Shown here: piece by piece, positions 37,673-52,198 of the stretch
How the letters are laid out: every line of letters begins with the position of its first letter
Position numbering within the stretch: position 1 is the first letter of the stretch
Source of the DNA: Pseudomonadota bacterium
Lineage (GTDB): Bacteria > Pseudomonadota > Gammaproteobacteria > Burkholderiales > JABEVD01
Direction: 5' to 3'
Assembly (NCBI GenBank): GCA_021806605.1
Contig: JAJZQY010000002.1
Span: forward strand, 26,900-90,899
DNA length: 64,000 nucleotides
Position numbers and translations under genes: made by a program
Notes under the pieces: generated by a model
What the model saw: only the letters and a program-made list of their open reading frames with translations
Databases searched by the model: none
Told to the model about the DNA's origin: nothing

Positions 37673-40600
37673 ATGCCAGCCTTCCAGCGAACTGATCGCC
37701 ATAAAATCGTTTCCCTTGCCGGCATATTCACCTGTCTGATCGGCGGCACGGTTCTCACTGGCTGGGCATTCGGACTTCCCCTGCTGACGCGCATCAACCC
37801 CGACTGGATTCCCATGGTACCGGGCACGGCACTCTGTTTCGTCTTGAGCGGATTGTCTCTGCTCGGAAGCAGGGAATCCTTGCCAGCGCGCACGCTGGTC
37901 TGGCTGACCATGCTGCTTGCCGGAGCAATGGGACTTGAGATTGCTGCCCATCGGCAATTCGCTGGCATCGATTTTCTGGCGCTGGTTTGGGGAGCGCAGT
38001 TCCGGAGCGTCGGCCACATGTCGCCACAGACCGTGATGGGATTCTTGGGATTCGGAATCGGAATGCTGTCCATTTGGCGGGCTGCTGACCAGAAGATGCG
38101 GGTGGTTGCCAGCACAATGGCTGTCCTGCTGCTTGCCATGGGGTTGACAGTTATCTTCGGATACTGGCTCAAGCTGCAGTATCTTTTCGAAACGATATAT
38201 ATCGAGACGGGACTGATATGGATGTCCCTGCCCACCGCCGTCGGCATGACCCTGCTGGGTGCCGGTCTGCTGTGCCTTGCGATTCGCTGCGAAGAAAGCG
38301 CCGTCGCTGTAACAGCTGAACAAAGAGCCAGGCAGATTTACCACGCCACGGTCTTCGTGGTCATCCTCACTTCTGTCGCCATCGGCCTGACCGGGATCTG
38401 GTTTCTCGAGAAAGCCATGCTGAGTCAGGCGACACTGGACATGCAGCAAAGCCTGAGTGCGAGACGCGCGCAGATCGAAGCCGCACTCGACGACCGCATA
38501 GAACGCACGACAGTGGCGAGTCAAGACCCCGAACTCCAATCGCTGGCATCTCTCTGGTTCGGCAAAGCCAAATCGACCATGAGGCGGGACACCCCGATTT
38601 CCAGCTTGCTTGCATACGGGTTCTCCGGAATCGGCCTGGAATCTGGCACCCATAGCAGAGTTGTCGCGGGGCGTCTTGTTTCGAATAAAACCGCCTTCTC
38701 CCGTCTTAACCGGGAAGAAGAAGCCTATCTCGCTTGGGACAATGGCTACTACCTGCGCGTGCTGATCCCCGTAAAACGGGGGATTCGCAGCGCCCCGGAA
38801 GGTTTCATCGTGTTCGAACAGGAACTTCGCGATGTGAATCGACTTTTCGACGAAGCCAGCCGCTGGGGAAAGACCGGCACCATGCCGATGTGCGGTCGTC
38901 TCGACCGGAGCAGACTGCTATGCTTTCCGCAGCGTGAACAGGCTGCAATGTATGTGATTCCCGACACTTTCAATGGGAAACCGCTGCCGATGACGCATGC
39001 ACTCGCCGGCGAAAGCGGCGTTTTCTCGTCGATCGATTACCGGGGACGCAATGTCCTATCAGCCTATGGCCCCGTGGGGAATACAGGGCTGGGTTTGGTT
39101 CTGAAAATGGATGTCGCAGAAGTTTACGCCCCGGTCAAACGGGAACTCTTGATTGCGCTCCCCTTGATCGCCATTCTGGTTGCTCTGGGACTATGGATCA
39201 CCCGTCTTCGGGGCAACCCGCTGATTCGGGACCTGGCAAATGCCCATGCTTCTGAAAGAATTGCGAGAGCCCGCTTCGAGGCGGCAAGGGAAAGCAGCCC
39301 GGATGCATTCGTGATTGGCGAGAGCATGAAAAGCGAGGATGGAGACATTGTCGACTTCCGCTACATCTACGCCAATTCCCATGCGGCAGACATGGCCAGG
39401 CTACCCGTCGATGGCCTGATTGGGCATTCGTTGCTGGAACTTTTTCCGGAACAGCGGGATATTTTCGCCCAATACAGGAAAGTAGCCCTCACGGGAAATC
39501 CGCTGACCAACGAGTTTTCGCTGGCCAGTGATGGCGTAACCCAGTGGTATCAGCGCCAGGCGGTGGCCATGCCCGGTGGCGTTGCAGTCACCTTCAGGAA
39601 CATCACGCAGGAAAAACGCCTGTTCCAGCAGCTCGAATACTCGAACCGCCTGCGTACCGCGATCGTGGAAAATGCAGCCTATTCGATCATTTCCACCGAC
39701 ATCGACGGCACCATCCTCACTTTCAACAAGGCTGCAGAACGCATGCTCTGGTATGACGCGGATGAGGTGGTCGGCAAAGCCAAGCCGCTGCTATTTCACG
39801 ATGCCGATGAAATCAGGGAACGTGCTGCGGCCCTGAGCCAGGAACTCGGCTGTGCGGTGCCGCCGGATTTCGAGGTGTTCGTCGCAAAAGCCAGGAAAAC
39901 TTTCCAGGAAGAACATGAATGGACCTACATTCGCAAGGACGGGTCACGCTTTCCCGTGCATCTTTCGGTGAGCGCATTGCGCGATGAGAATGGTGTAATC
40001 CAGGGATTCATCGGCATTGCTTACGACATTTCCGAGGAAATGCGGGCCAAAGAATACATCAGGCACATTGCCCTGCATGACGTACTGACCGGACTGCCCA
40101 ATCGTGCCCTGCTTGATGACAGAATAATGGTGGCGATCGAGCAACAGCACAGAAGCAATGTCCCGTTTGCGCTGGGCATGATGGATATTGACCGTTTCAA
40201 GCATATCAACGACTCGATGGGGCATCACATCGGAGACAGACTGCTCAAAGAGTTCGTTGAACGTGTCTCTTCCTGTCTGCGGCCGACCGACACGCTTGCC
40301 AGGATGGGAGGAGACGAGTTCGTCCTGCTTCTGACCGAAACCGACGAGACTGGCGTGTCGCTCGTCGCCGGGCGCATACACAAGGCGCTGATGCAGCCGA
40401 TCAATGTGGGTATCCAGCAAGTACACATTACTTCGAGCATCGGCTTCAGTATTTGCCCCCGAGACGGCCACGACATGAATGAGCTGCTGCGATGTGCCGA
40501 TGTGGCGATGTATTGGGTCAAGGAGCATGGACGCAATGGATACAAGCTGTATTCGCGGGAAATGGACAGGGGTACGGCGAATCGGTTGAGCATCGAAAGG

Positions 40601-41383
40601 GAGCTTCATCTTGCTATTGAAAGCGGAGGATTTTCCCTGTTCTATCAACCTAAAGTGGATTTGAAGTCGAAAACCGTGCTGGGCGTCGAAGCTTTGCTGC
40701 GCATGCACAACGGAAGCGATCAGCCTGTGCCGCCTTCCAGCTTCATTCCCCTGGCCGAAGAAACAGGGCTCATCCTGCGGATCGGTCAATGGGTGCTGGA
40801 GGCGGCCTGTCGTGATGCAAAAAGAATGGAAAAGTTGCTGGGGGTGGCGCTCAAGGTTGCGGTCAACATATCACCGCGGCAATTCATGAACGGCGATCTG
40901 GTCATGCTGGTCAGAAATGCTCTCGGGCAGGCTAGTCTGGAAAGCGCTCAGCTGGAGTTGGAGATCACCGAAAGCGTGCTGATGGATGAAAGAAGCGATG
41001 TCGCCACTGCTCTGGAGGCGCTGCATGCGCTTGGGGTGAGAATCGCCATCGACGATTTCGGAACCGGGTATTCGAGCCTGAGTTACCTGAAACGCTATCC
41101 GATCAGCCAGCTCAAGATCGACCAGTCCTTCGTCCGGGATGCGACAGGAGACGCGGAGAACGCGGCTTTGATCACCGCGATCATTGCCATGGGGCATAAC
41201 CTGAAGATTCCCGTCATTGCAGAAGGCATTGAAACCGATGAACAGCTTTCATTTCTGGTCGAGAATCATTGCGATCAGGGGCAAGGATTTTACATCGGGC
41301 ACCCGATGCCTTTCGATGCGCTGCTGCAATGGCTAGTCGACGATACTCGCTGGACTCTGGAAAGACGACCAGCTTCCAGTTGA
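37673..41383 (+). CDS. Membrane sensor PAS-PAS-GGDEF-EAL protein
   Basis: Multiple N-terminal TM helices, Cache-like periplasmic region, two PAS, RPTD/GGDEF, EAL, DDFGTGYSS. Confidence 0.9.
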   Translation: MPAFQRTDRHKIVSLAGIFTCLIGGTVLTGWAFGLPLLTRINPDWIPMVPGTALCFVLSGLSLLGSRESLPARTLVWLTMLLAGAMGLEIAAHRQFAGIDFLALVWGAQFRSVGHMSPQTVMGFLGFGIGMLSIWRAADQKMRVVASTMAVLLLAMGLTVIFGYWLKLQYLFETIYIETGLIWMSLPTAVGMTLLGAGLLCLAIRCEESAVAVTAEQRARQIYHATVFVVILTSVAIGLTGIWFLEKAMLSQATLDMQQSLSARRAQIEAALDDRIERTTVASQDPELQSLASLWFGKAKSTMRRDTPISSLLAYGFSGIGLESGTHSRVVAGRLVSNKTAFSRLNREEEAYLAWDNGYYLRVLIPVKRGIRSAPEGFIVFEQELRDVNRLFDEASRWGKTGTMPMCGRLDRSRLLCFPQREQAAMYVIPDTFNGKPLPMTHALAGESGVFSSIDYRGRNVLSAYGPVGNTGLGLVLKMDVAEVYAPVKRELLIALPLIAILVALGLWITRLRGNPLIRDLANAHASERIARARFEAARESSPDAFVIGESMKSEDGDIVDFRYIYANSHAADMARLPVDGLIGHSLLELFPEQRDIFAQYRKVALTGNPLTNEFSLASDGVTQWYQRQAVAMPGGVAVTFRNITQEKRLFQQLEYSNRLRTAIVENAAYSIISTDIDGTILTFNKAAERMLWYDADEVVGKAKPLLFHDADEIRERAAALSQELGCAVPPDFEVFVAKARKTFQEEHEWTYIRKDGSRFPVHLSVSALRDENGVIQGFIGIAYDISEEMRAKEYIRHIALHDVLTGLPNRALLDDRIMVAIEQQHRSNVPFALGMMDIDRFKHINDSMGHHIGDRLLKEFVERVSSCLRPTDTLARMGGDEFVLLLTETDETGVSLVAGRIHKALMQPINVGIQQVHITSSIGFSICPRDGHDMNELLRCADVAMYWVKEHGRNGYKLYSREMDRGTANRLSIERELHLAIESGGFSLFYQPKVDLKSKTVLGVEALLRMHNGSDQPVPPSSFIPLAEETGLILRIGQWVLEAACRDAKRMEKLLGVALKVAVNISPRQFMNGDLVMLVRNALGQASLESAQLELEITESVLMDERSDVATALEALHALGVRIAIDDFGTGYSSLSYLKRYPISQLKIDQSFVRDATGDAENAALITAIIAMGHNLKIPVIAEGIETDEQLSFLVENHCDQGQGFYIGHPMPFDALLQWLVDDTRWTLERRPASS

Positions 41384-41584
41384 TCACCTATTCCAGCAAG
41401 CACGACATCGATGCCTTACGATGTTTTTGCGCCCCCTCCCCTGTTTGCCTGAGGCGGCATCATCTCTCGCCGTCCCGAGCCACTTTCGCAGCCCCAAAAT
41501 TTCGTATCTAAAACAATACGAATAATCTTCCTCTATCCTAGTGCATTGATATTATTTTGTTATATTCCTTGAGATTCGTGCGCC

Positions 41585-42538
41585 TCATGCCAGCGCCAAG
41601 CGACTGGCTTCGCTTTGCTTGAGCGACGACGTGAACATTTCGCTTCCTGCGCAATGGTTCAGAAAATGCTTAAGGTTGTCAGAAAGATATTTCTGCTTGT
41701 GCAGGATGATGTGGAATTTCCGAGTCAGCTTGGGCAATTCCGTATCCAGGATGATCAATTGACCGGTTTCGAGATAATCCGCAACGGCCCATCGCGACAG
41801 GCAGCTTATTCCGAGCCCCTCGGAGGTTGCCCGCTTGATCGCTTCCGCGCCGCCGAATTCCATCCCGATGTTCAGATGGCTAAGATGCCTCAGCAATTCG
41901 TATTCCACCGTCTCGCGCGTGCCGGACCCGGATTCCCGCATCAGCCATTGCGCCTGCTGGAGCGTATCGAAATCAACCTTGCCCTTTCTGGCTATGGCAT
42001 GGGTCGGGGAGGCGACGATCAGCAGTTCATCCTGAATCCAGGGAATGACTTCAAGATTCGGCACATGGCAATGCCCTTCGATAAAGCCGGCATCGATCTC
42101 GTAATTCGCGACTGCTTCGGCGATTTTGGAACTGTTGGCAATGTCCACGCGCATGCTAGGCACCGCTTCGCATTCTCCGAATTGCTCCCTGCGGCAGCCG
42201 GCAAGCAGGGCGGGCAGAATGTAGTTGCCAATGGTCGTGCTCGCTCCCAAACGGAGTTGCGAAACCATCCCGGTCCGGGCAGTCGAAAATTGCTGTTCGA
42301 GATCGATTGCCCCTTCGATCAGGGCAAGCGCATTTGGCAGGAGCAGCCGCCCGTTGTCATTGAGCACGAGGCGCTTTCCGACTCGATCGAACAACTGGGT
42401 GTTGAGCAAGCTTTCTATGTCGTTGATGGCAGCGCTGGTTGCAGACTGTGAAAGGGGCAGACTCTTTCCCGCCTCGGTTGTGCTCGAGGTGCGCGCGACG
42501 GCGACGAAAATCTGCAACTGGCGTAACGTGATGCGCAT
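41585..42538 (-). CDS. LysR regulator, YeiE/FinR/CysL subfamily
   Basis: MRITLRQLQIF...SQSATS...QLFDRVGKRL, GASTTIGNY, RESGSGTR. Confidence 0.88.
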   Translation of the reverse strand: MRITLRQLQIFVAVARTSSTTEAGKSLPLSQSATSAAINDIESLLNTQLFDRVGKRLVLNDNGRLLLPNALALIEGAIDLEQQFSTARTGMVSQLRLGASTTIGNYILPALLAGCRREQFGECEAVPSMRVDIANSSKIAEAVANYEIDAGFIEGHCHVPNLEVIPWIQDELLIVASPTHAIARKGKVDFDTLQQAQWLMRESGSGTRETVEYELLRHLSHLNIGMEFGGAEAIKRATSEGLGISCLSRWAVADYLETGQLIILDTELPKLTRKFHIILHKQKYLSDNLKHFLNHCAGSEMFTSSLKQSEASRLALA

Positions 42539-42724
42539 GCTGATTCCTTCGATCTATTTTGCCGGTCGATTATACCCGCGTAATTTGTAATGCATCTATA
42601 CTCATCCTGTATAATTCTGGGACACCCTAAAATGGGAATGATTCAACGCCCAGGGCGGGCACAGGGCATGTCGCGAACCAGCACGGCCCGGCATTGACCA
42701 TCACAACAAAGGAGAATACCGATC

Positions 42725-43510
42725 ATGGATTTGACGCGTCGAGATATGTTGGGCATCGTGGCAAAAACTGGCCTCGCAGGCGTAGCTTTGGGAAGCGGCA
42801 TTGCCCAGGCAGCGGAAGCCCCTCTTTCTTCTTTGGAGCCGGATGGCGCGAAGACGCTGAAGGAATTGACGAAGGCTCTCGCAAAGGCGCCTCGCCGCCG
42901 GGACTTCAAGGAAGTGCCCATGATCCTGACCAAGGAAGATGAATGGGATCATGAAGCCCTGACCATCCTCATGAAGTACAAGGGCAAGGTCAAGCAGGTT
43001 TGGGACAATACGGACATCTCGGGCCCCTGGCTCAATCTCATGAGAAACTCAATGAATGCCCAGATCTGGTCATTCAAGCATCCCGACTTCCTATGCGTTT
43101 CGGCGACCCATGGCCCCGCTCATCTGGCGCTCTACGATCAATATCTCTGGGACAAGTACCAGCTTTCCAAGCTGACCGGAGACAAATTCAAGGAAAACAC
43201 CTTCCTGAAAGTGCCTGCGGCAGCGCACGCTGACCCGAAAAACTTCGAGGACGAGGAAGGCGTGTTTTCACCTGCAGATAATTCCATAGCCTCCCTACAG
43301 GCAAGGGGTGCGGTTTTTCTGGCCTGCCACAATGCGATTTTCGAGATTTCGCACATGCTGAACAAGAAGGGCGTCAACCCTGACAAACTCAGTGTGCCGC
43401 AAATGGTTGCCGAATTCACCAATCACCTGATTCCGGGCGTGATCCTCACCCCAGGGATCGTGGCCACCTTGCCGGAACTCGGCGTGCATGGCTTCCAGTA
43501 TGCGAAATAA
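42725..43510 (+). CDS. Tat-exported protein resembling Acidithiobacillus-type thiosulfate dehydrogenase Tsd (DsrE-like C-terminal motif)
   Basis: TRRDML Tat signal, PRRRDFKEVPMIL, CVSATHG, RGAVFLACHNAI; no CxxCH; RBS AAGGAG. Confidence 0.65.
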   Translation: MDLTRRDMLGIVAKTGLAGVALGSGIAQAAEAPLSSLEPDGAKTLKELTKALAKAPRRRDFKEVPMILTKEDEWDHEALTILMKYKGKVKQVWDNTDISGPWLNLMRNSMNAQIWSFKHPDFLCVSATHGPAHLALYDQYLWDKYQLSKLTGDKFKENTFLKVPAAAHADPKNFEDEEGVFSPADNSIASLQARGAVFLACHNAIFEISHMLNKKGVNPDKLSVPQMVAEFTNHLIPGVILTPGIVATLPELGVHGFQYAK

Positions 43511-43520
43511 AGGAAACCAC

Positions 43521-44468
43521 ATGAACAAAAAGCTGATTTCATCGCTCATGGGGCTGGGGTGCATTCTGGCGACGGCACAGGCCGTCGCGGATGTTTACCC
43601 GCCATGGAGCGAAGGAAGAAACAACCCGGTCACCGAAAGAGGCCTGGAATTCACCGTTCCGGAAGTCGACAATCTGCCGGATTTCCACGGCAACCCCATG
43701 GATGCCAAGCTGTCGGTTTTCGTCGGCGGAAACTATTATTTCGCCATGGCGCCGCTAGTCGCAGAATTCGAAAAGGAACATCCTGAGTACAAGGGCAAGA
43801 TTTACTACGAAACCATCCCTCCCGGCTTGCTTGCTACCCAGATTGAAAAAGGCGGCACCATCACGGTCGGAAACATGACCTGGACGGTGAAGGCGGATGT
43901 TTATGCCGCAGGCATGAAGCGCGTCAAGCAGATGGTGGACAAGGGTTATGTGAAGGCGGTCGAGCCTTATGCGACCAATGATCTCACCATCATGGTACCG
44001 AAAGGCAATCCCGGCCACATCACCTCGCTGAAGGATCTCGGCAAACCCGGCGTCAAGCTCGTCATGCCCAATCCCGCATTCGAAGGCATCGCACGGCAAA
44101 TCAAGGCAGCGCTGAAGAAGGCTGGTGGAGATGAACTGGTGAAAGCCGTTTATGAATCGAAAGTGAGGAACGGCGAAACTATCCTTACCCACATCCATCA
44201 CCGCCAGAGTCCGATGTTCCTGATGCAAGGAAAGGCAGTTGCCGGCGTGACATGGGGCTCGGAAGCCGTTTTCCAGGAAAGACATGCTGGAAACCCCATC
44301 TCGTTCGTGAAGATTGCGCCCGAGCATAACTCGACCGCAATCTATGCGGCAGGGGTGCTCAAGGATGCGCCCAATCCTGAAGCGGCAAAAGCCTGGGTGG
44401 AATTCCTGAAATCCTCCAAGGCACTGGCGATTTTCCAACAATACGGCTTCAAGCCTTATCGCCCGTAA
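43521..44468 (+). CDS. ModA/PBP2-like periplasmic oxyanion-binding protein
   Basis: Signal peptide, NDLTIMVPKGNP, MPNPAFEG, EAAKAWVEFLKS...QYGF; no permease or ATPase nearby. Confidence 0.8.
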   Translation: MNKKLISSLMGLGCILATAQAVADVYPPWSEGRNNPVTERGLEFTVPEVDNLPDFHGNPMDAKLSVFVGGNYYFAMAPLVAEFEKEHPEYKGKIYYETIPPGLLATQIEKGGTITVGNMTWTVKADVYAAGMKRVKQMVDKGYVKAVEPYATNDLTIMVPKGNPGHITSLKDLGKPGVKLVMPNPAFEGIARQIKAALKKAGGDELVKAVYESKVRNGETILTHIHHRQSPMFLMQGKAVAGVTWGSEAVFQERHAGNPISFVKIAPEHNSTAIYAAGVLKDAPNPEAAKAWVEFLKSSKALAIFQQYGFKPYRP

Positions 44469-44470
44469 AG

Positions 44471-44506
44471 ATGCTTCGGCCGCTCTCGACCAGAGCGGCC
44501 GAGCAT
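44471..44506 (+). repeat. Strong intercistronic stem-loop
   Basis: ATGC(T)TCGGCCGCTCT-CGACC-AGAGCGGCCGAGCAT. Confidence 0.7.
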
Positions 44507-44629
44507 GTTCATTTGAACACTATCTCTCGGGATCGAAGCCGGTATCCCGTCCAATTTGAAATGGCTCGAGCCAGAGCTCTTTTTGCATATTTTGAGGCCT
44601 ATTTGGTCGAAACAAGATGGAGTGAATAC

Positions 44630-46666
44630 ATGAAGTTGGGAATAGCCTCGCTGAAGTTGTTGGGTGCCGCATTGGCGACAATGGTTGCAAGCTCCGCGCT
44701 GGCTGCAGCGCCTTCATCCAATGATCTGGTCAAGCAGGGCGAATACCTGGCACATCTGGGCGACTGCGTCGCCTGCCATACCGCGCCTGGCGGCAAGCCG
44801 CTGGCTGGCGGCCTGGAAATGAAAACGCCGTTCGGCGTCATCCATTCCACCAATATCACACCCGACAAGGTAGATGGCATCGGCGCCTATACTTTCGAAG
44901 AATTCGACCGCGCGATGCGCCGCGGCGTTGCACGGGATGGACACAATCTTTATCCCGCCATGCCTTATCCTTCATTCGCCAAAATCGCCCAGAACGACAT
45001 GAGAGCCCTTTACGCCTACCTCATGCAAGGCGTCGAACCGGTTGCTCAGCCCAACAAGCCCAATGCCATGAAGTTTCCCTTCAACATTCGCCTGGGGCTC
45101 GCAGGCTGGAACATGGTGTTCCTGGATAATCAGCCCTTCCGTTACGATCCTTCGCACACCCCGCAGTGGAATCGCGGCGCATATATTGTAGAGGGACTGG
45201 GTCACTGCGGCTCCTGCCATACTCCGCGCGGCATCGGTTTCCAGGAAAAGGCCATGAGCGACTCGGGCAGCGACGGCAAGGAGTTCCTGGCAGGCGCAGC
45301 CGTCGAGCACTGGCGCGCCGTCAATCTGCGCAATATCTGGACCGGCCCTGAAATCGCCCAGTTTCTGAAGACCGGTGAAAATGGCCGCGGAACGGCCTAC
45401 GGCGGCATGGCCGAAGTGGTCCATTTCAGCTCGCAGCATTTCACCCAAGGCGACCTCGCCGCGATCGGCGAGTACATCCACGCGCTTTCGCCCAATTCGA
45501 ATGAGCGGCCGGATCGTGATGCCGTGTCGGTGGATGTCGCTCAAACCAACAAGGAGATCTATGCAACCCGCGGCGGCCTCGGTTACGTGCAGTTCTGCGC
45601 AACTTGCCATCAGATGGACGGCAAGGGTGCGACACGCTTTTTCCCGCCGCTCGCCGGCAATACTTCTATTCAGGCCAAGGACCCCGCATCCCTCATCCAC
45701 GTCATGCTGACGGGCTCCGCCTCGCCCCTGACCGCCTCCTCACCGCACGCCTTCGCGATGCCCTCCTATTCCGTGCTGAATGACCAGGAAGTCGCGGAAA
45801 TAGCGACTTTCGTCCGGACCCATTGGGGCAACAAGGGCAGTCCGGTGACTGCCGAACAGATTCACAAGATGAGGAAGGCGCTGGAAATGAAAAAGGCGGC
45901 TCCGCCTAAATTCAATCCGCCGCGCTATGCAGACATGCTGAAAAGCGCCAACGCAGCCGAGCTGATTTACGGCATGCGTCTGATGCGCGACACCAAGCGA
46001 CTGCTGCCGAACTATGTGGGCGATGGGCTGAACTGCGACAGCTGCCATATCAATGGCGGAACGATGGCGCTTGGCTCTCCTTATGTCGGTGTGGCGGCCC
46101 AGTTTCCCAGCTACAATCCCCGCGCCGGGCGCATCATCGACTTCAAGGACCGCGTCAACGGCTGCATGCTGCGCTCGATGGCAGGCAACCCGCTTGACAA
46201 GAATTCCAAGGAAATGAACGCTATGATCGCCTACATGGATTGGATGCGCAATGGCTATCAGATGAAGCAGAAGATTCCCGGGCGCGGGATCGGCAAGATC
46301 AGCAAAAGCATCGTGCCGAACGCGGCGAATGGCAAGGAAGTCTACAATCATTCCTGCGCCGTTTGCCACGGAAAACAGGGCGAAGGCATCAAGCGCGCCG
46401 ATGGCAGCTACCTGTTCCCGCCGCTGTGGGGCAACGACTCGTACAATATCGGCGCAGGGATTGCCAAGACCTACACGGCAGCCGCGTTCGCCAAGAATGT
46501 CATGCCGCTCTCGAATACCTTCTCCTTTCCGATTGGCCAGGGTGGCCTGACGGATCAGCAGGCGGTGGACGTCGGCGAATATTTCAGCCACATGCCAAGG
46601 CGCGATTTCCCGGCCAAGGTCCATGACTGGCCCAAAGGCGGCAAGCCGAGCGACTCGCGCTATTGA
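44630..46666 (+). CDS. Pentaheme cytochrome c: ADH/GADH-type triheme domain fused to a TsdA thiosulfate dehydrogenase domain
   Basis: CVACH, CGSCH, CATCH with STNITPD and YPAMPY; then CDSCH, RVNGCMLRSM, CAVCH, PPLWGNDSYNIGAG, NVMP. Confidence 0.85.
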   Translation: MKLGIASLKLLGAALATMVASSALAAAPSSNDLVKQGEYLAHLGDCVACHTAPGGKPLAGGLEMKTPFGVIHSTNITPDKVDGIGAYTFEEFDRAMRRGVARDGHNLYPAMPYPSFAKIAQNDMRALYAYLMQGVEPVAQPNKPNAMKFPFNIRLGLAGWNMVFLDNQPFRYDPSHTPQWNRGAYIVEGLGHCGSCHTPRGIGFQEKAMSDSGSDGKEFLAGAAVEHWRAVNLRNIWTGPEIAQFLKTGENGRGTAYGGMAEVVHFSSQHFTQGDLAAIGEYIHALSPNSNERPDRDAVSVDVAQTNKEIYATRGGLGYVQFCATCHQMDGKGATRFFPPLAGNTSIQAKDPASLIHVMLTGSASPLTASSPHAFAMPSYSVLNDQEVAEIATFVRTHWGNKGSPVTAEQIHKMRKALEMKKAAPPKFNPPRYADMLKSANAAELIYGMRLMRDTKRLLPNYVGDGLNCDSCHINGGTMALGSPYVGVAAQFPSYNPRAGRIIDFKDRVNGCMLRSMAGNPLDKNSKEMNAMIAYMDWMRNGYQMKQKIPGRGIGKISKSIVPNAANGKEVYNHSCAVCHGKQGEGIKRADGSYLFPPLWGNDSYNIGAGIAKTYTAAAFAKNVMPLSNTFSFPIGQGGLTDQQAVDVGEYFSHMPRRDFPAKVHDWPKGGKPSDSRY

Positions 46667-46701
46667 TACGGGCAAAGACTCATTCAAGCCTGTCAAAATG
46701 A

Positions 46702-46738
46702 AGCGCTCCTCTCCGCTTCCGGGAGGGGCGTCTTTCTT
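46702..46738 (+). terminator. Probable terminator of the sulfur operon
   Basis: CGCTCCTCTCC...GGGAGGGGCG followed by TCTTTCTT. Confidence 0.55.
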
Positions 46739-46798
46739 CATGCTGTCATCATGGATGATATACAATGAATCAGCCAGTCACAGCGGGAGGTTCAAGCC

Positions 46799-47146
46799 AT
46801 GTATGCAGTTGATCGTAGCGTCGCCATCGTCAAGCCCCGGGAGCCTTTCCTGGAATGGATCAAGGCACTGCCCGGCGCGGAAATCGACATCACCCTGGAG
46901 CAGCTGAGGACGGATTCCACAGTCTATCTCATTCCTGATTTCGACGAGATCGAGGATGCGCTGGCCGCGATAGATCATATCTACGGCAATATCTTCGAAG
47001 CCGAGCTTTCCGAATGGTCGGAGGAAGAAAACACCTGGCCGGCAGACAGGACACTCAAGCTTTTCTGGAAGTGGTTTGACGTTACCCTGCATTCCATCGT
47101 CATCGACGCAGCCGAAGACATCGCAGGAGAAATCACGATCAACTGA
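46799..47146 (+). CDS. Conserved hypothetical acidic protein
   Basis: RBS GGAGG; [17 protein letters not shown]...IFEAELSEW...WPADRT...WF. Confidence 0.75.
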
Positions 47147-47208
47147 AGTCGAATGGCAAAATCCATCCTGTTTACTACAATGGGTTCAAACAGCATGGAG
47201 ACTCAGCT

Positions 47209-47661
47209 ATGAAACTGATGAATAAGCTTGCCGCTTCGATTCTGGTCGCATCCCTCGCATCCTGCAGCAACCAGCCTTCCAAGCAGGACGTTGGCACCGT
47301 CACCGGCGGGGTGCTCGGAGGCGTTCTGGGGTCACAGGTGGGCAAGGGAACCGGACGGGATGTCGCCATCATAGCCGGGGCGTTGGCGGGGGCCTATCTC
47401 GGCAGCGCGATAGGAAAATCCATGGACGAGACGGACCGTCTGAAGACGGCACAAGCCATGGAAAGCAACCCGACAGGAAGAGCCACGAGCTGGCGAAATC
47501 CGGACACGGGGAACACCTATACCGTGATGCCGACAAAGACCTATGAGACGGAGACAGGTCCCTGCCGGGATTTCACGACGAAAGCCATCATCGGCGGCAA
47601 GCAGGAAACCATTTACGGCACAGCCTGCAGGCAGGCTGATGGAAGCTGGAAGACGAAGTGA
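47209..47661 (+). CDS. Glycine-zipper lipoprotein (17-kDa surface antigen family)
   Basis: Lipobox [28 protein letters not shown]...ACRQADGSW. Confidence 0.85.
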
Positions 47662-47662
47662 A

Positions 47663-48070
47663 TCAGACTTTCCAGCGCAGCCAGACGCGAAGTTGCCTGA
47701 ACTCTTCCCTGTCGATTGCATCAGGCAGAATGACCACCGATTTCATCAGGCGCTTCCCCTCCTCCTTCAGGTTAAGGACGGTCAGATAAGGGGAAACGTA
47801 GCTGCTGCCGTGAAAGGCGCAGATTTTTTCGCTGCCGCCGCGCATGGAAAACATGCAGGACTTTTCTTCAAGCTTGAGGGAAACGATGGAGTCGGGAAGC
47901 TGGATGAGCGCATAACGCAGGATCGAATAAGCCATGCTGAATGCGAGAAGCATGACAAGGGGAAGTCTTGCTGAAATTGGAAGCACGAGAATCAGGGAAA
48001 TCGCGCCAAGATGGGCTGCTGCGAGTATGGCGGCAAGGCTGATCGAAGGCCTGAGGGAAATCGGGATCAT
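47663..48070 (-). CDS. YgfX/CptA-like membrane protein
   Basis: LRPS...AAHLG, two TM helices, C-terminal ILPDAIDREEFRQLRVWLRW. Confidence 0.75.
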   Translation of the reverse strand: MIPISLRPSISLAAILAAAHLGAISLILVLPISARLPLVMLLAFSMAYSILRYALIQLPDSIVSLKLEEKSCMFSMRGGSEKICAFHGSSYVSPYLTVLNLKEEGKRLMKSVVILPDAIDREEFRQLRVWLRWKV

Positions 48071-48360
48071 TTTTCCTTCTGCTGGGGAGAAGATTTGATC
48101 ACCTGGAAAAAAATCTCGTCGTCCTTCACCATGCCCAGCTTGCTCCTTGCGCGCTCTTCGATCGCGGCATAACCCTGCTTAAGATCTTTCACGTCAGCAT
48201 CGATCGCTGCATTTCTTTCCTGCATTTTCTGGTTTGCTTGCTGCTGTGCCCTGATCTGCCTGTCCATATCCCGGACCTGAAGCCACCCTCCCTTGCCCAG
48301 CCAAAGCGAATATTGTACCAAGGCGATCAGGGAGAGCAGAATCAGGAGCAGGATTCGCAT
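48067..48360 (-). CDS. ftsB: Cell division protein FtsB
   Basis: QYSLWLGKGG, coiled coil, IEERARSKLGMVKDDEIF. Confidence 0.95.
   Translation of the reverse strand: MRILLLILLSLIALVQYSLWLGKGGWLQVRDMDRQIRAQQQANQKMQERNAAIDADVKDLKQGYAAIEERARSKLGMVKDDEIFFQVIKSSPQQKEK

Positions 48361-52198
<3,838 letters not shown>

Follow-up and report, generated by a model that had tools for sequence, protein, structure and literature searches.

A divergent four-gene unit in an acid-mine bacterium

The 64,000-nucleotide (nt) stretch analysed here (the window; contig JAJZQY010000002.1 of assembly GCA_021806605.1) comes from an acid-mine bacterium and carries a compact unit of four genes with a predicted role in thiosulfate metabolism. 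A gene for a LysR-type regulator is divergent from three co-directional genes, which encode a putative thiosulfate dehydrogenase (Tsd), a periplasmic binding protein (SBP) and a secreted five-haem cytochrome c (Table 1). The open reading frame (ORF) list and a hairpin scan agree with the initial annotation of this DNA, which had placed four ORFs and a closing terminator here. SBP starts 10 nt past the Tsd stop, and G+C is even over the region (0.51-0.60). The arrangement is more than chance, because it recurs in other genomes. A scan of one genome per species, with Tsd as the seed, yielded 478 relatives, of which we used the best 78 loci, a sample biased to closer relatives; a survey seeded with the cytochrome gave 80 metagenome loci.

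Table 1. Features of the four-gene unit, in positions of the window.
Feature	Position	Strand	Description
LysR-type regulator, YeiE subfamily	41585-42538	-	317 aa; Pfam, NCBIfam and alignment to 7erp_A
Divergent control region	42539-42724		186-bp gap; three conserved elements
Tsd, predicted Tat-exported haem-free thiosulfate dehydrogenase, AFE_0042 family	42725-43510	+	261 aa; NF052225
SBP, orphan periplasmic ModA/sulfate-binding-like protein, AFE_0043 family	43521-44468	+	315 aa; PF13531
12-bp G+C-rich hairpin	44475-44503	+	spacer between SBP and cytochrome genes
Secreted five-haem cytochrome c	44630-46666	+	678 aa from the likely start; five CxxCH motifs
Intrinsic-terminator-like hairpin with T-rich tail	46703-46731	+	closes the operon; hairpin scan

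Tsd is modelled as a DsrE-fold protein with a candidate catalytic cysteine

Tsd scores 393.9 bits on the NCBIfam equivalog NF052225, 'thiosulfate dehydrogenase', where the cut-off is 300; its residues 5-261 cover positions 1-259 of the 259-position profile. A protein from Acidithiobacillus ferrooxidans F221 shares 64% identity with it across 99% of the Tsd sequence. The N-terminus (MDLTRRDML) has the features of a Tat signal, with the twin-arginine motif TRRDML, a hydrophobic stretch and AQA, and both Arg5 and Arg6 are invariant in 16 sequences. The pair Cys201-His202 is likewise invariant in these 16 sequences and nearly invariant in 30 (Cys201 codon, 43325-43327). From its membership in NF052225, Tsd is predicted to convert thiosulfate to tetrathionate. 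The purified A. ferrooxidans thiosulfate dehydrogenase (TSD) does so at acid pH (PMC6335251), and is described as reducing neither ubiquinone nor horse cytochrome c (PMC6335251, Wang et al. 2019). This 2019 review lists the structure and catalytic mechanism of TSD as still to be clarified, and its electron acceptor is drawn as '?' in Kanao 2024 (PMC10859504).

Tsd matched no Pfam family at E 0.01 or below, DsrE (PF02635) included, and neither Tsd nor a profile of 30 Tsd sequences found anything below E 0.2 among PDB sequences. The fold was approached through an AF2 model made from the 30-sequence alignment (pLDDT 88.4, pTM 0.81). When this model was compared with 48,161 chains by VIA-align, ranks 1-9 were all taken by the DsrE/YchN/TusBCD family, with Z from 12.9 to 7.8: 2pd2_A came first (Z 12.9, root-mean-square deviation 1.3 A, 105/108 residues aligned), with 1l1s_A at 11.5, YchN at 9.4, DsrEFH at 8.5 and TusBCD at 7.8, and the next unrelated match stood at 4.9. 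The five best natural matches in Foldseek were DsrE-family proteins as well, at E 0.003-0.12 and none at E 0.001 or below, and a lead from Tsd to DsrE given by Protein Atlas at 0.81 was later borne out by the structure search. Tsd is, as modelled, a DsrE-fold protein, with residues 88-261 making up a DsrE-like core that carries insertions.

In the model, Cys201 closes a strand (197-201) and is followed at once by a helix (202-214); hhalign placed it on the Cys of two PF02635-positive proteins at a probability of only 37.6%. In Metallosphaera, tetrathionate reacts with DsrE3A to give a Cys-S-thiosulfonate (PMC4175335), and similar cysteine chemistry is therefore plausible for Tsd. Some JGI records label Tsd-family members 'DsrE/DsrF family'. 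Our literature search, which covered part of the primary enzyme papers, met no statement of a DsrE fold for TSD.

The orphan binding protein SBP

SBP matches PF13531 at 1.2e-56, and its model matches ModA, PEB3 and sulfate-binding structures at E 1e-16. On the modA profile TIGR01256 it reaches 61.8 bits, just below the cut-off of 62.5, and falls outside the ModA equivalog. The ORF list holds no ABC permease or ATPase within 39000-50000, as the first description of SBP as an orphan had it, and the homology that had been proposed for Tsd and SBP to the AFE_0042/AFE_0043 pair is clear, for Tsd from NF052225 and from the 64% identity to the F221 protein.

The SBP alignment has a mean column identity of 61% and contains invariant motifs, HHRQ among them. 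The SBP gene directly follows Tsd in 64 of the 78 loci, across phyla; twelve loci lack it despite having room, and in two the contigs are too short. In a Planctomycetota metagenome-assembled genome (MAG; L077, 7644-9530), SBP and a TsdA dihaem cytochrome form a single 628-aa ORF directly after Tsd, and in four metagenome loci SBP stands beside the five-haem fusion without Tsd. A complex prediction for Tsd 31-261 and SBP 23-315, made from alignment inputs, scored 0.00 in two runs, which is evidence neither way.

A five-haem cytochrome that joins a trihaem module to TsdA

In its longest reading the cytochrome ORF starts at 44471, 5' of the spacer hairpin. The ATG at 44630 is the likely start, given a GGAG 9 nt upstream of it, the signal peptide (MKLGIASLKLL...) that follows and homologue N-termini that align there. 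CxxCH motifs lie at residues 46, 193, 323, 469 and 576 and belong to two modules. Residues 11-416 (44660-45877) form a trihaem module of the ADH type: it matches residues 20-435 of 8gy2_B, the quinone cytochrome c subunit of alcohol dehydrogenase (ADH), at E 1.3e-103 with three haem c sites, and also the cytochrome subunits of the membrane-bound glucose (GDH), fructose (FDH) and aldehyde (ALDH) dehydrogenases; E runs from 1e-103 to 1e-78 for ADH, GDH and FDH, and to 4e-62 with ALDH included. Residues 439-660 (45944-46609) form a TsdA dihaem module (PF21342, 48.4 bits vs 27) that matches A. vinosum TsdA, 4wq7, at E 6e-44. The Cys of NGCMLRSM (Cys512) aligns there with the active-site Cys, the axial ligand of haem 1, and the Met of KNVMP (Met625) aligns with the haem-2 Met. 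The module has the two CxxCH motifs (C469, C576) and the Cys and Met ligands of a TsdA, and takes neither the stand-alone dihaem nor the TsdBA form. Across 10 fusion proteins that come from two classes of proteobacteria, neither Cys512 nor Met625 nor any of the five haem sites varies.

No gene for a catalytic subunit with pyrroloquinoline quinone (PQQ) or flavin adenine dinucleotide (FAD) was found in 39000-50000, and our literature search returned no experimental study of a five-haem or trihaem TsdA fusion.

A YeiE-type regulator and its control region

The regulator matches Pfam HTH_1 and LysR_substrate. It passes the cut-off of the NCBIfam subfamily PRK10837 (334 bits, cut-off 281) and stays under that of the YeiE equivalog (372.6 bits, cut-off 480), and its regulatory domain aligns with YeiE 7erp_A at E 4.6e-51. 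In CsYeiE the sulfite pocket is lined by S96, S97, N126, S127, E145, R191, S195 and T197, and E145 excludes sulfate (PMC8931317). Alignment to 7erp_A and 7fdf_A, the latter an E145S mutant entry through which the Glu position was fixed, puts S100, T101, N135, S136, E154, R201, S205 and T207 at these positions: seven of the eight residues are identical, one is conservative and the sulfate-excluding Glu is kept. The initial annotation had called this regulator YeiE-type and had stated that YeiE binds sulfite; the PRK10837 score and the pocket residues uphold the former, and the latter is borne out by the published work (PMC8931317).

Three blocks of the control region are conserved in an alignment of eight loci, including two of the DoxDA type (L010 and L011, described below), and may be regulatory sites: a box like those of LysR-type transcriptional regulators, ATTA-N8-TAAT (42569-42584), a TATAAT (42610-42615) and the near-palindrome GGGAATGATTC (42634-42644). 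A promoter scan called no sigma-70 site in this region.

Between the SBP and cytochrome genes is a spacer of 161 nt, and its hairpin begins 7 nt past the SBP stop. The hairpin is shared by the window, L007, L001, L002 and L004, a G-C to A-T change in it being compensatory. Lacking a T-run, it does not have the form of a canonical terminator; it may set the ratio of tsd-sbp to cytochrome transcripts or be a protein-binding palindrome. A dispersed REP-like repeat was considered as well and rejected, the hairpin having a single copy in the 1.95-Mb assembly. In L003, a locus that has no cytochrome gene, a homologue of the closing hairpin and its tail directly follows the SBP stop.

DoxDA or a TsdA-type cytochrome follows Tsd and SBP in most loci surveyed, never both

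In A. ferrooxidans, tsd (AFE_0042), sbp (AFE_0043), doxDA (AFE_0044) and rhd form one thiosulfate cluster (PMC6335251), and AFE_0041-0046 is a single operon, up-regulated on sulfur (PMC2754497, Quatrini et al. 2009). The cluster of the window has sbp directly after tsd and has no DoxDA. We recorded which gene comes after Tsd, or Tsd and SBP, in each of the 78 loci, using tblastn and Pfam-checked representatives. DoxDA holds this place in 22 loci. A trihaem cytochrome with TsdA does so in 17, of which ten have the fusion intact, two have it in pieces and one is truncated by the contig end; in the remaining four the trihaem and TsdA modules are separate adjacent genes. A TsdA-like gene lacking the trihaem module is found in 16 more, often with a TsdB-like dihaem gene before it. 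TsdA-type cytochromes hence amount to 33 of the 78, and DoxDA or a TsdA-type gene is present in 55; in two loci TsdA occurs only far upstream, and 21 have neither gene, five of these being cut by contig ends. DoxDA and a TsdA-type gene were found together in none of the 78 loci. Two relatives, L010 and L011, illustrate the exchange: they have the LysR gene (73-76% identity), Tsd and SBP, and then DoxDA 3-7 nt after SBP. A quick maximum-likelihood tree of Tsd requires 12 or more switches of the third-gene label, against a lowest possible count of 3 and a mean of 41 after shuffling.

The survey (22 and 33 loci, none with both) fits the earlier suggestion that doxDA and tsdA are mutually exclusive third genes. 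The Acidithiobacillus pair of Tsd and a ModA-like protein beside doxDA had been named correctly (PMC6335251, PMC2754497), and the pentahaem fusion of a trihaem module with TsdA that had been put in the doxDA slot is there, as the matches to 8gy2_B and 4wq7 indicate and as L010 and L011, with DoxDA instead, make apparent.

Several relatives extend the cluster. In alphaproteobacterial MAGs (L030, L038, L041, L044, L052 and similar loci) a SoxB-like gene of the 5'-nucleotidase family comes after Tsd, SBP and the fusion, and LplA-like, radical-SAM and geranylgeranyl-reductase-like genes come before Tsd; we take the latter set to resemble the lipoate-maturation genes of sHdr sulfur oxidation. In Methylobacterium and relatives (L046, L047, L061, L074, L076) the order is Tsd, SBP, in some cases a dihaem gene, and TsdA, followed directly by a gene for a COX1-family oxidase subunit (660-870 aa) and a CtaG-like gene; an oxidase outlet of their own is suggested by this order. 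In another family, one genome holds a weak Tsd-like match (G036:C96:3358-4563; 29 bits, under the cut-off) directly upstream of a TsdA-like ORF of 271 aa, which shares 47% identity with the TsdA module of the window.

Distribution of the five-haem fusion and genome context

Of the 80 cytochrome-seeded metagenome loci, 24 hold the fused form; in the remaining 56 the match covers just the trihaem part. When a database was searched for long proteins alone, 470 clusters came back. Among the best 120, which were inspected, almost all are 660-700 aa long and are named 'c-type cytochrome' or 'thiosulfate dehydrogenase'; the carriers include Azospira oryzae, Rhodoferax ferrireducens, Zoogloea, Massilia and Sulfuriferula.

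A tree of the TsdA module places the window in a clade of eight that has good support, and all eight are next to SBP: the order is Tsd, SBP, cytochrome in five and cytochrome, then SBP in three. An alphaproteobacterial clade of 12 is always beside Tsd and SBP, and another clade of 12 is beside neither. The three loci with the five-haem fusion before SBP are metagenome loci (L085, 4941-9950; L086; L088). At least two of them, L085 and L088, continue with a DsrE-family protein (PF02635) that has a Sec signal, and a canonical DsrE protein therefore occupies the place of Tsd there; L085 and L086 continue with a YeeE-like 'Sulf_transp' membrane protein.

The 1.95-Mb assembly is a MAG with a completeness of 82%. 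A tblastn search of it with two DoxDA proteins gave no match; the only DoxD-type hit in the genome is a 23.7-bit domain match on another contig, and SoxB was not found in this 82%-complete genome. A cytochrome bd quinol oxidase is present (CydA, 568 bits). A second, small cytochrome c with a SoxA/TsdA domain (143 aa; G000:C82, L081:1471-1902, minus strand) adjoins a SurA/PpiC-type rotamase gene elsewhere in the genome. As to habitat, the DNA runs that hold at least half of the sampled words of the stretch are three from mine drainage or tailings and one labelled plainly 'metagenome'; no RNA run was listed as holding it.

Proposed function and alternatives

The reading towards which we lean is that of a sulfite-induced periplasmic module that converts thiosulfate to tetrathionate, with the five-haem protein replacing DoxDA, SBP binding an oxyanion and Tsd working through Cys201. 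From the gene identities, folds, conserved residues and synteny given above, we infer how substrate binding, protein contacts, catalytic direction and quinone coupling might fit together. The module would carry out the first step of the tetrathionate-intermediate (S4I) pathway, in which two thiosulfate give tetrathionate. The YeiE-type regulator would sense sulfite, or a close sulfur oxyanion, and activate the divergent operon; SBP would capture the oxyanion, substrate or product, in the periplasm; and Tsd would handle thiosulfate or tetrathionate on Cys201, probably as a Cys-S-thiosulfonate. The TsdA module would provide the haem-linked oxidation at its Cys512-ligated haem, from which the trihaem module would pass electrons on, most likely to the quinone pool and the cytochrome bd oxidase. 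The five-haem protein would then fill the role that the membrane enzyme DoxDA, as thiosulfate:quinone oxidoreductase (TQO), has in tsd-sbp-doxDA clusters of the Acidithiobacillus type, and may be the missing physiological electron acceptor of Tsd.

Several observations weigh against this reading. The link to the LysR regulator is lineage-specific (9 of the 78 Tsd loci), and in other lineages ArsR-type or two-component regulators are near Tsd. The five-haem fusion itself forms a family of its own, widespread and in most cases found apart from Tsd, as its 470 clusters and its mostly Tsd-free metagenome copies indicate: one of the 24 fused copies is beside Tsd, five are beside SBP and 19 are beside neither. 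Within the genus, seven of eight other species have Tsd and four have the fusion. Tsd-SBP and fusion are adjacent in two of them (G003, G006) and probably in G001, where the contigs L004 and L165 break inside the spacer. In a further species (G008) the fusion, 91% identical, is separated from Tsd-SBP by 26 kb; the genes around it are unrelated, with an EAL-domain gene on one side and a Maf gene on the other (C13, L164:4771-6810). The Tsd locus of that genome is L003, and this separation, together with the terminator after SBP, marks the cytochrome gene as a movable module. A DoxDA gene may also have escaped assembly, the genome being 82% complete.

Other such points concern the cytochrome as an enzyme. 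TsdA enzymes work in both directions. The position just before the haem-2 Met is occupied by Lys in the TsdA of A. vinosum, which is biased to oxidation, and by Asn in the reduction-biased TsdA that C. jejuni uses for tetrathionate respiration (PMC5146829). The cytochrome has Val here, which is neither, and the sequence therefore does not give the catalytic direction. We found no transmembrane or C-terminal hydrophobic segment in the cytochrome, its sole hydrophobic segment being the signal peptide, and the membrane coupling and quinone reduction proposed for it are by analogy with relatives of the trihaem module only. Twelve trihaem-only metagenome homologues were uninformative on membrane binding: they have no C-terminal hydrophobic window, and N-terminal ones in three.

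A wider proposal, which we hold to be rather unlikely, generalizes the module: Tsd and SBP could be the conserved substrate-handling core of a modular thiosulfate:acceptor oxidoreductase, to which DoxDA, TsdB-TsdA or the five-haem fusion, the latter wired to quinone, would be plugged in as exchangeable electron outputs. Bacterial 'TQO' activity would then need Tsd and SBP, the acceptor of TSD would be the product of the neighbouring gene, and thiosulfate would be passed on as a Cys-S-thiosulfonate.

About as doubtful is the alternative that the locus encodes co-regulated but independent enzymes, Tsd and the five-haem TsdA being separate thiosulfate dehydrogenases, for instance with differing pH optima or affinities, that share only a promoter, exchanging neither electrons nor sulfur intermediates and making no contacts, with SBP serving either or neither. 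The absence of Tsd from 23 of the 24 fused metagenome copies and the 26 kb between fusion and Tsd-SBP in G008 fit this, as do the 21 loci (five of them cut by contig ends) in which Tsd-SBP has no neighbouring oxidoreductase and the A. vinosum TsdA (PDB 4wq7 family), which is complete as an enzyme by itself. Against separate enzymes stand the 78 loci, in which DoxDA and a TsdA-type gene never meet and one of them is present in 55, the SBP-TsdA fusion of L077 and the betaproteobacterial clade of the fusion, in which eight of eight copies are beside SBP; the purified TSD, moreover, is without a known acceptor.

The module could also run in reverse, as a tetrathionate reductase, although we consider this improbable. 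Quinol electrons would enter via the trihaem module, the TsdA haem would reduce tetrathionate, and Tsd and SBP would bind tetrathionate or remove thiosulfate. Such a direction is known from the tetrathionate respiration of C. jejuni with a TsdA, an enzyme that runs both ways (PMC5146829); the Lys ligand found in the oxidation-biased enzyme of A. vinosum is missing from the cytochrome, neutrophilic facultative anaerobes such as Azospira, Rhodoferax and Zoogloea commonly carry the fusion, and DsrE-type proteins react with tetrathionate (PMC4175335). Against it, the equivalent slot is held elsewhere by the thiosulfate-oxidising DoxDA, the Acidithiobacillus cluster is induced in sulfur oxidation (PMC2754497), the runs holding this DNA are mostly mine-drainage and tailings metagenomes, and the genome encodes an oxygen-reducing bd oxidase.

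That the real substrate is sulfite, which Tsd, via Cys201, and the cytochrome would detoxify or oxidise, seems very improbable to us. The conserved sulfite pocket of the LysR protein and the YeiE regulons, which are a defence against sulfite (PMC8931317; PMC12880088), favour this. Against it, both enzymes belong to families characterised with thiosulfate, and the regulator is present at only nine of the 78 loci. Sulfite also inhibits TsdA, and it can be a proxy signal, since thiosulfate in acid decomposes into sulfite and sulfur. Finally, we give hardly any credence to SBP being a stray part of a molybdate or sulfate uptake system that has no link to the redox genes: its ModA fold and near-threshold modA score (61.8 bits, cut-off 62.5; the profile being a hidden Markov model) would suit one, but no permease or ATPase is nearby, SBP adjoins Tsd in 64 of the 78 loci across phyla at 61% mean column identity, is fused to TsdA in L077 and accompanies the five-haem fusion in four metagenome loci without Tsd.

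Neighbouring genes

The gene adjoining LysR (37673-41383) encodes a 1236-aa membrane protein in whose translation we recognise GGDEF and EAL signature motifs. Pfam-checked GGDEF-EAL genes are also beside Tsd in L067, L070, L073 and L055, and thiosulfate oxidation in Erythrobacter is reportedly under c-di-GMP control. On the other side, 3' of the terminator, are a conserved 115-aa protein that belongs to no family (46799-47146) and a glycine-zipper lipoprotein of the 17-kDa-antigen type (47209-47661); both genes stay in place in relatives with or without the cytochrome gene.

Significance and comparison with known systems

Thiosulfate is the key intermediate of pyrite dissolution, and its route of oxidation shapes acid production in mine waters. 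The gene families and the tsd-sbp-doxDA layout are already known. In the literature searched, which took in part of the primary enzyme papers, we did not find the five-haem TsdA swap under a YeiE-type regulator, the DsrE fold of Tsd or the either-or choice of partner. The present analysis adds a modelled DsrE fold and a candidate catalytic cysteine for the haem-free TSD, and it adds that Tsd and SBP are accompanied by either of two unrelated electron-accepting thiosulfate oxidoreductases and in no surveyed locus by both. It also adds a compact four-gene unit suited to the reconstitution of a testable electron route. The five-haem TsdA fusion is a possible haem-based thiosulfate:quinone oxidoreductase, or quinol:tetrathionate reductase, that is widespread and includes representatives in the cultured Azospira, Rhodoferax and Massilia.

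Each component can be set beside a known system. With YeiE of Cronobacter (7erp) and of Salmonella and E. coli, the regulator shares the regulatory domain and the sulfite-lining residues, the Glu145 equivalent included; YeiE targets yeiH or cysJI, whereas the target here would be a respiratory sulfur operon, and the score is under the YeiE equivalog cut-off. With the DsrE-family carriers (DsrE3A of Metallosphaera cuprina, DsrEFH, TusBCD, YchN), the modelled Tsd has in common the fold and a Cys at a strand end and helix start. Unlike these carriers, it is predicted to be periplasmic and Tat-exported and is larger, by about 65 residues of insertions and an N-terminal extension, and its family is reported as a dehydrogenase, theirs as carriers.

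The C-terminal 240 residues of the cytochrome resemble TsdA and TsdBA (A. vinosum 4wq7, M. purpuratum 5lo9, C. jejuni) at E 1e-44, with both haem sites and their ligands; the fused partner, however, is an ADH-type trihaem module of about 420 aa and not the dihaem TsdB, and the gene is tied to Tsd-SBP. Residues 11-416 are alike, end to end, to the cytochrome subunits of quinone-reducing dehydrogenases (8gy2_B, 8hdd_B, 7w2j_C, 8gy3_A), from which the protein differs in having TsdA fused in place of a PQQ or FAD catalytic subunit as partner. In the tsdB-tsdA-soxB pathway of Erythrobacter flavus, the tetrathionate that a TsdA-type cytochrome produces goes to a SoxB-like hydrolase (PMC7608252). The alphaproteobacterial relatives have the same combination of TsdA and SoxB-like genes, whereas the window and its genome are without a SoxB match; Tsd and SBP go unmentioned in the available text of the E. 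flavus account (PMC7608252).

The closest known counterpart of the whole unit is the A. ferrooxidans operon AFE_0041-0046 (tehA-like, tsd, sbp, doxDA, rhodaneses), in which Tsd and SBP have the same order and orientation as here. Two of the surveyed loci (L049, L069) are laid out in this Acidithiobacillus fashion, with SLAC1-like, Tsd, SBP, DoxDA and rhodanese genes. The window, in contrast, has no DoxDA, rhodanese or SLAC1-like gene; it has a five-haem TsdA fusion in the DoxDA position and a YeiE-type LysR gene upstream.

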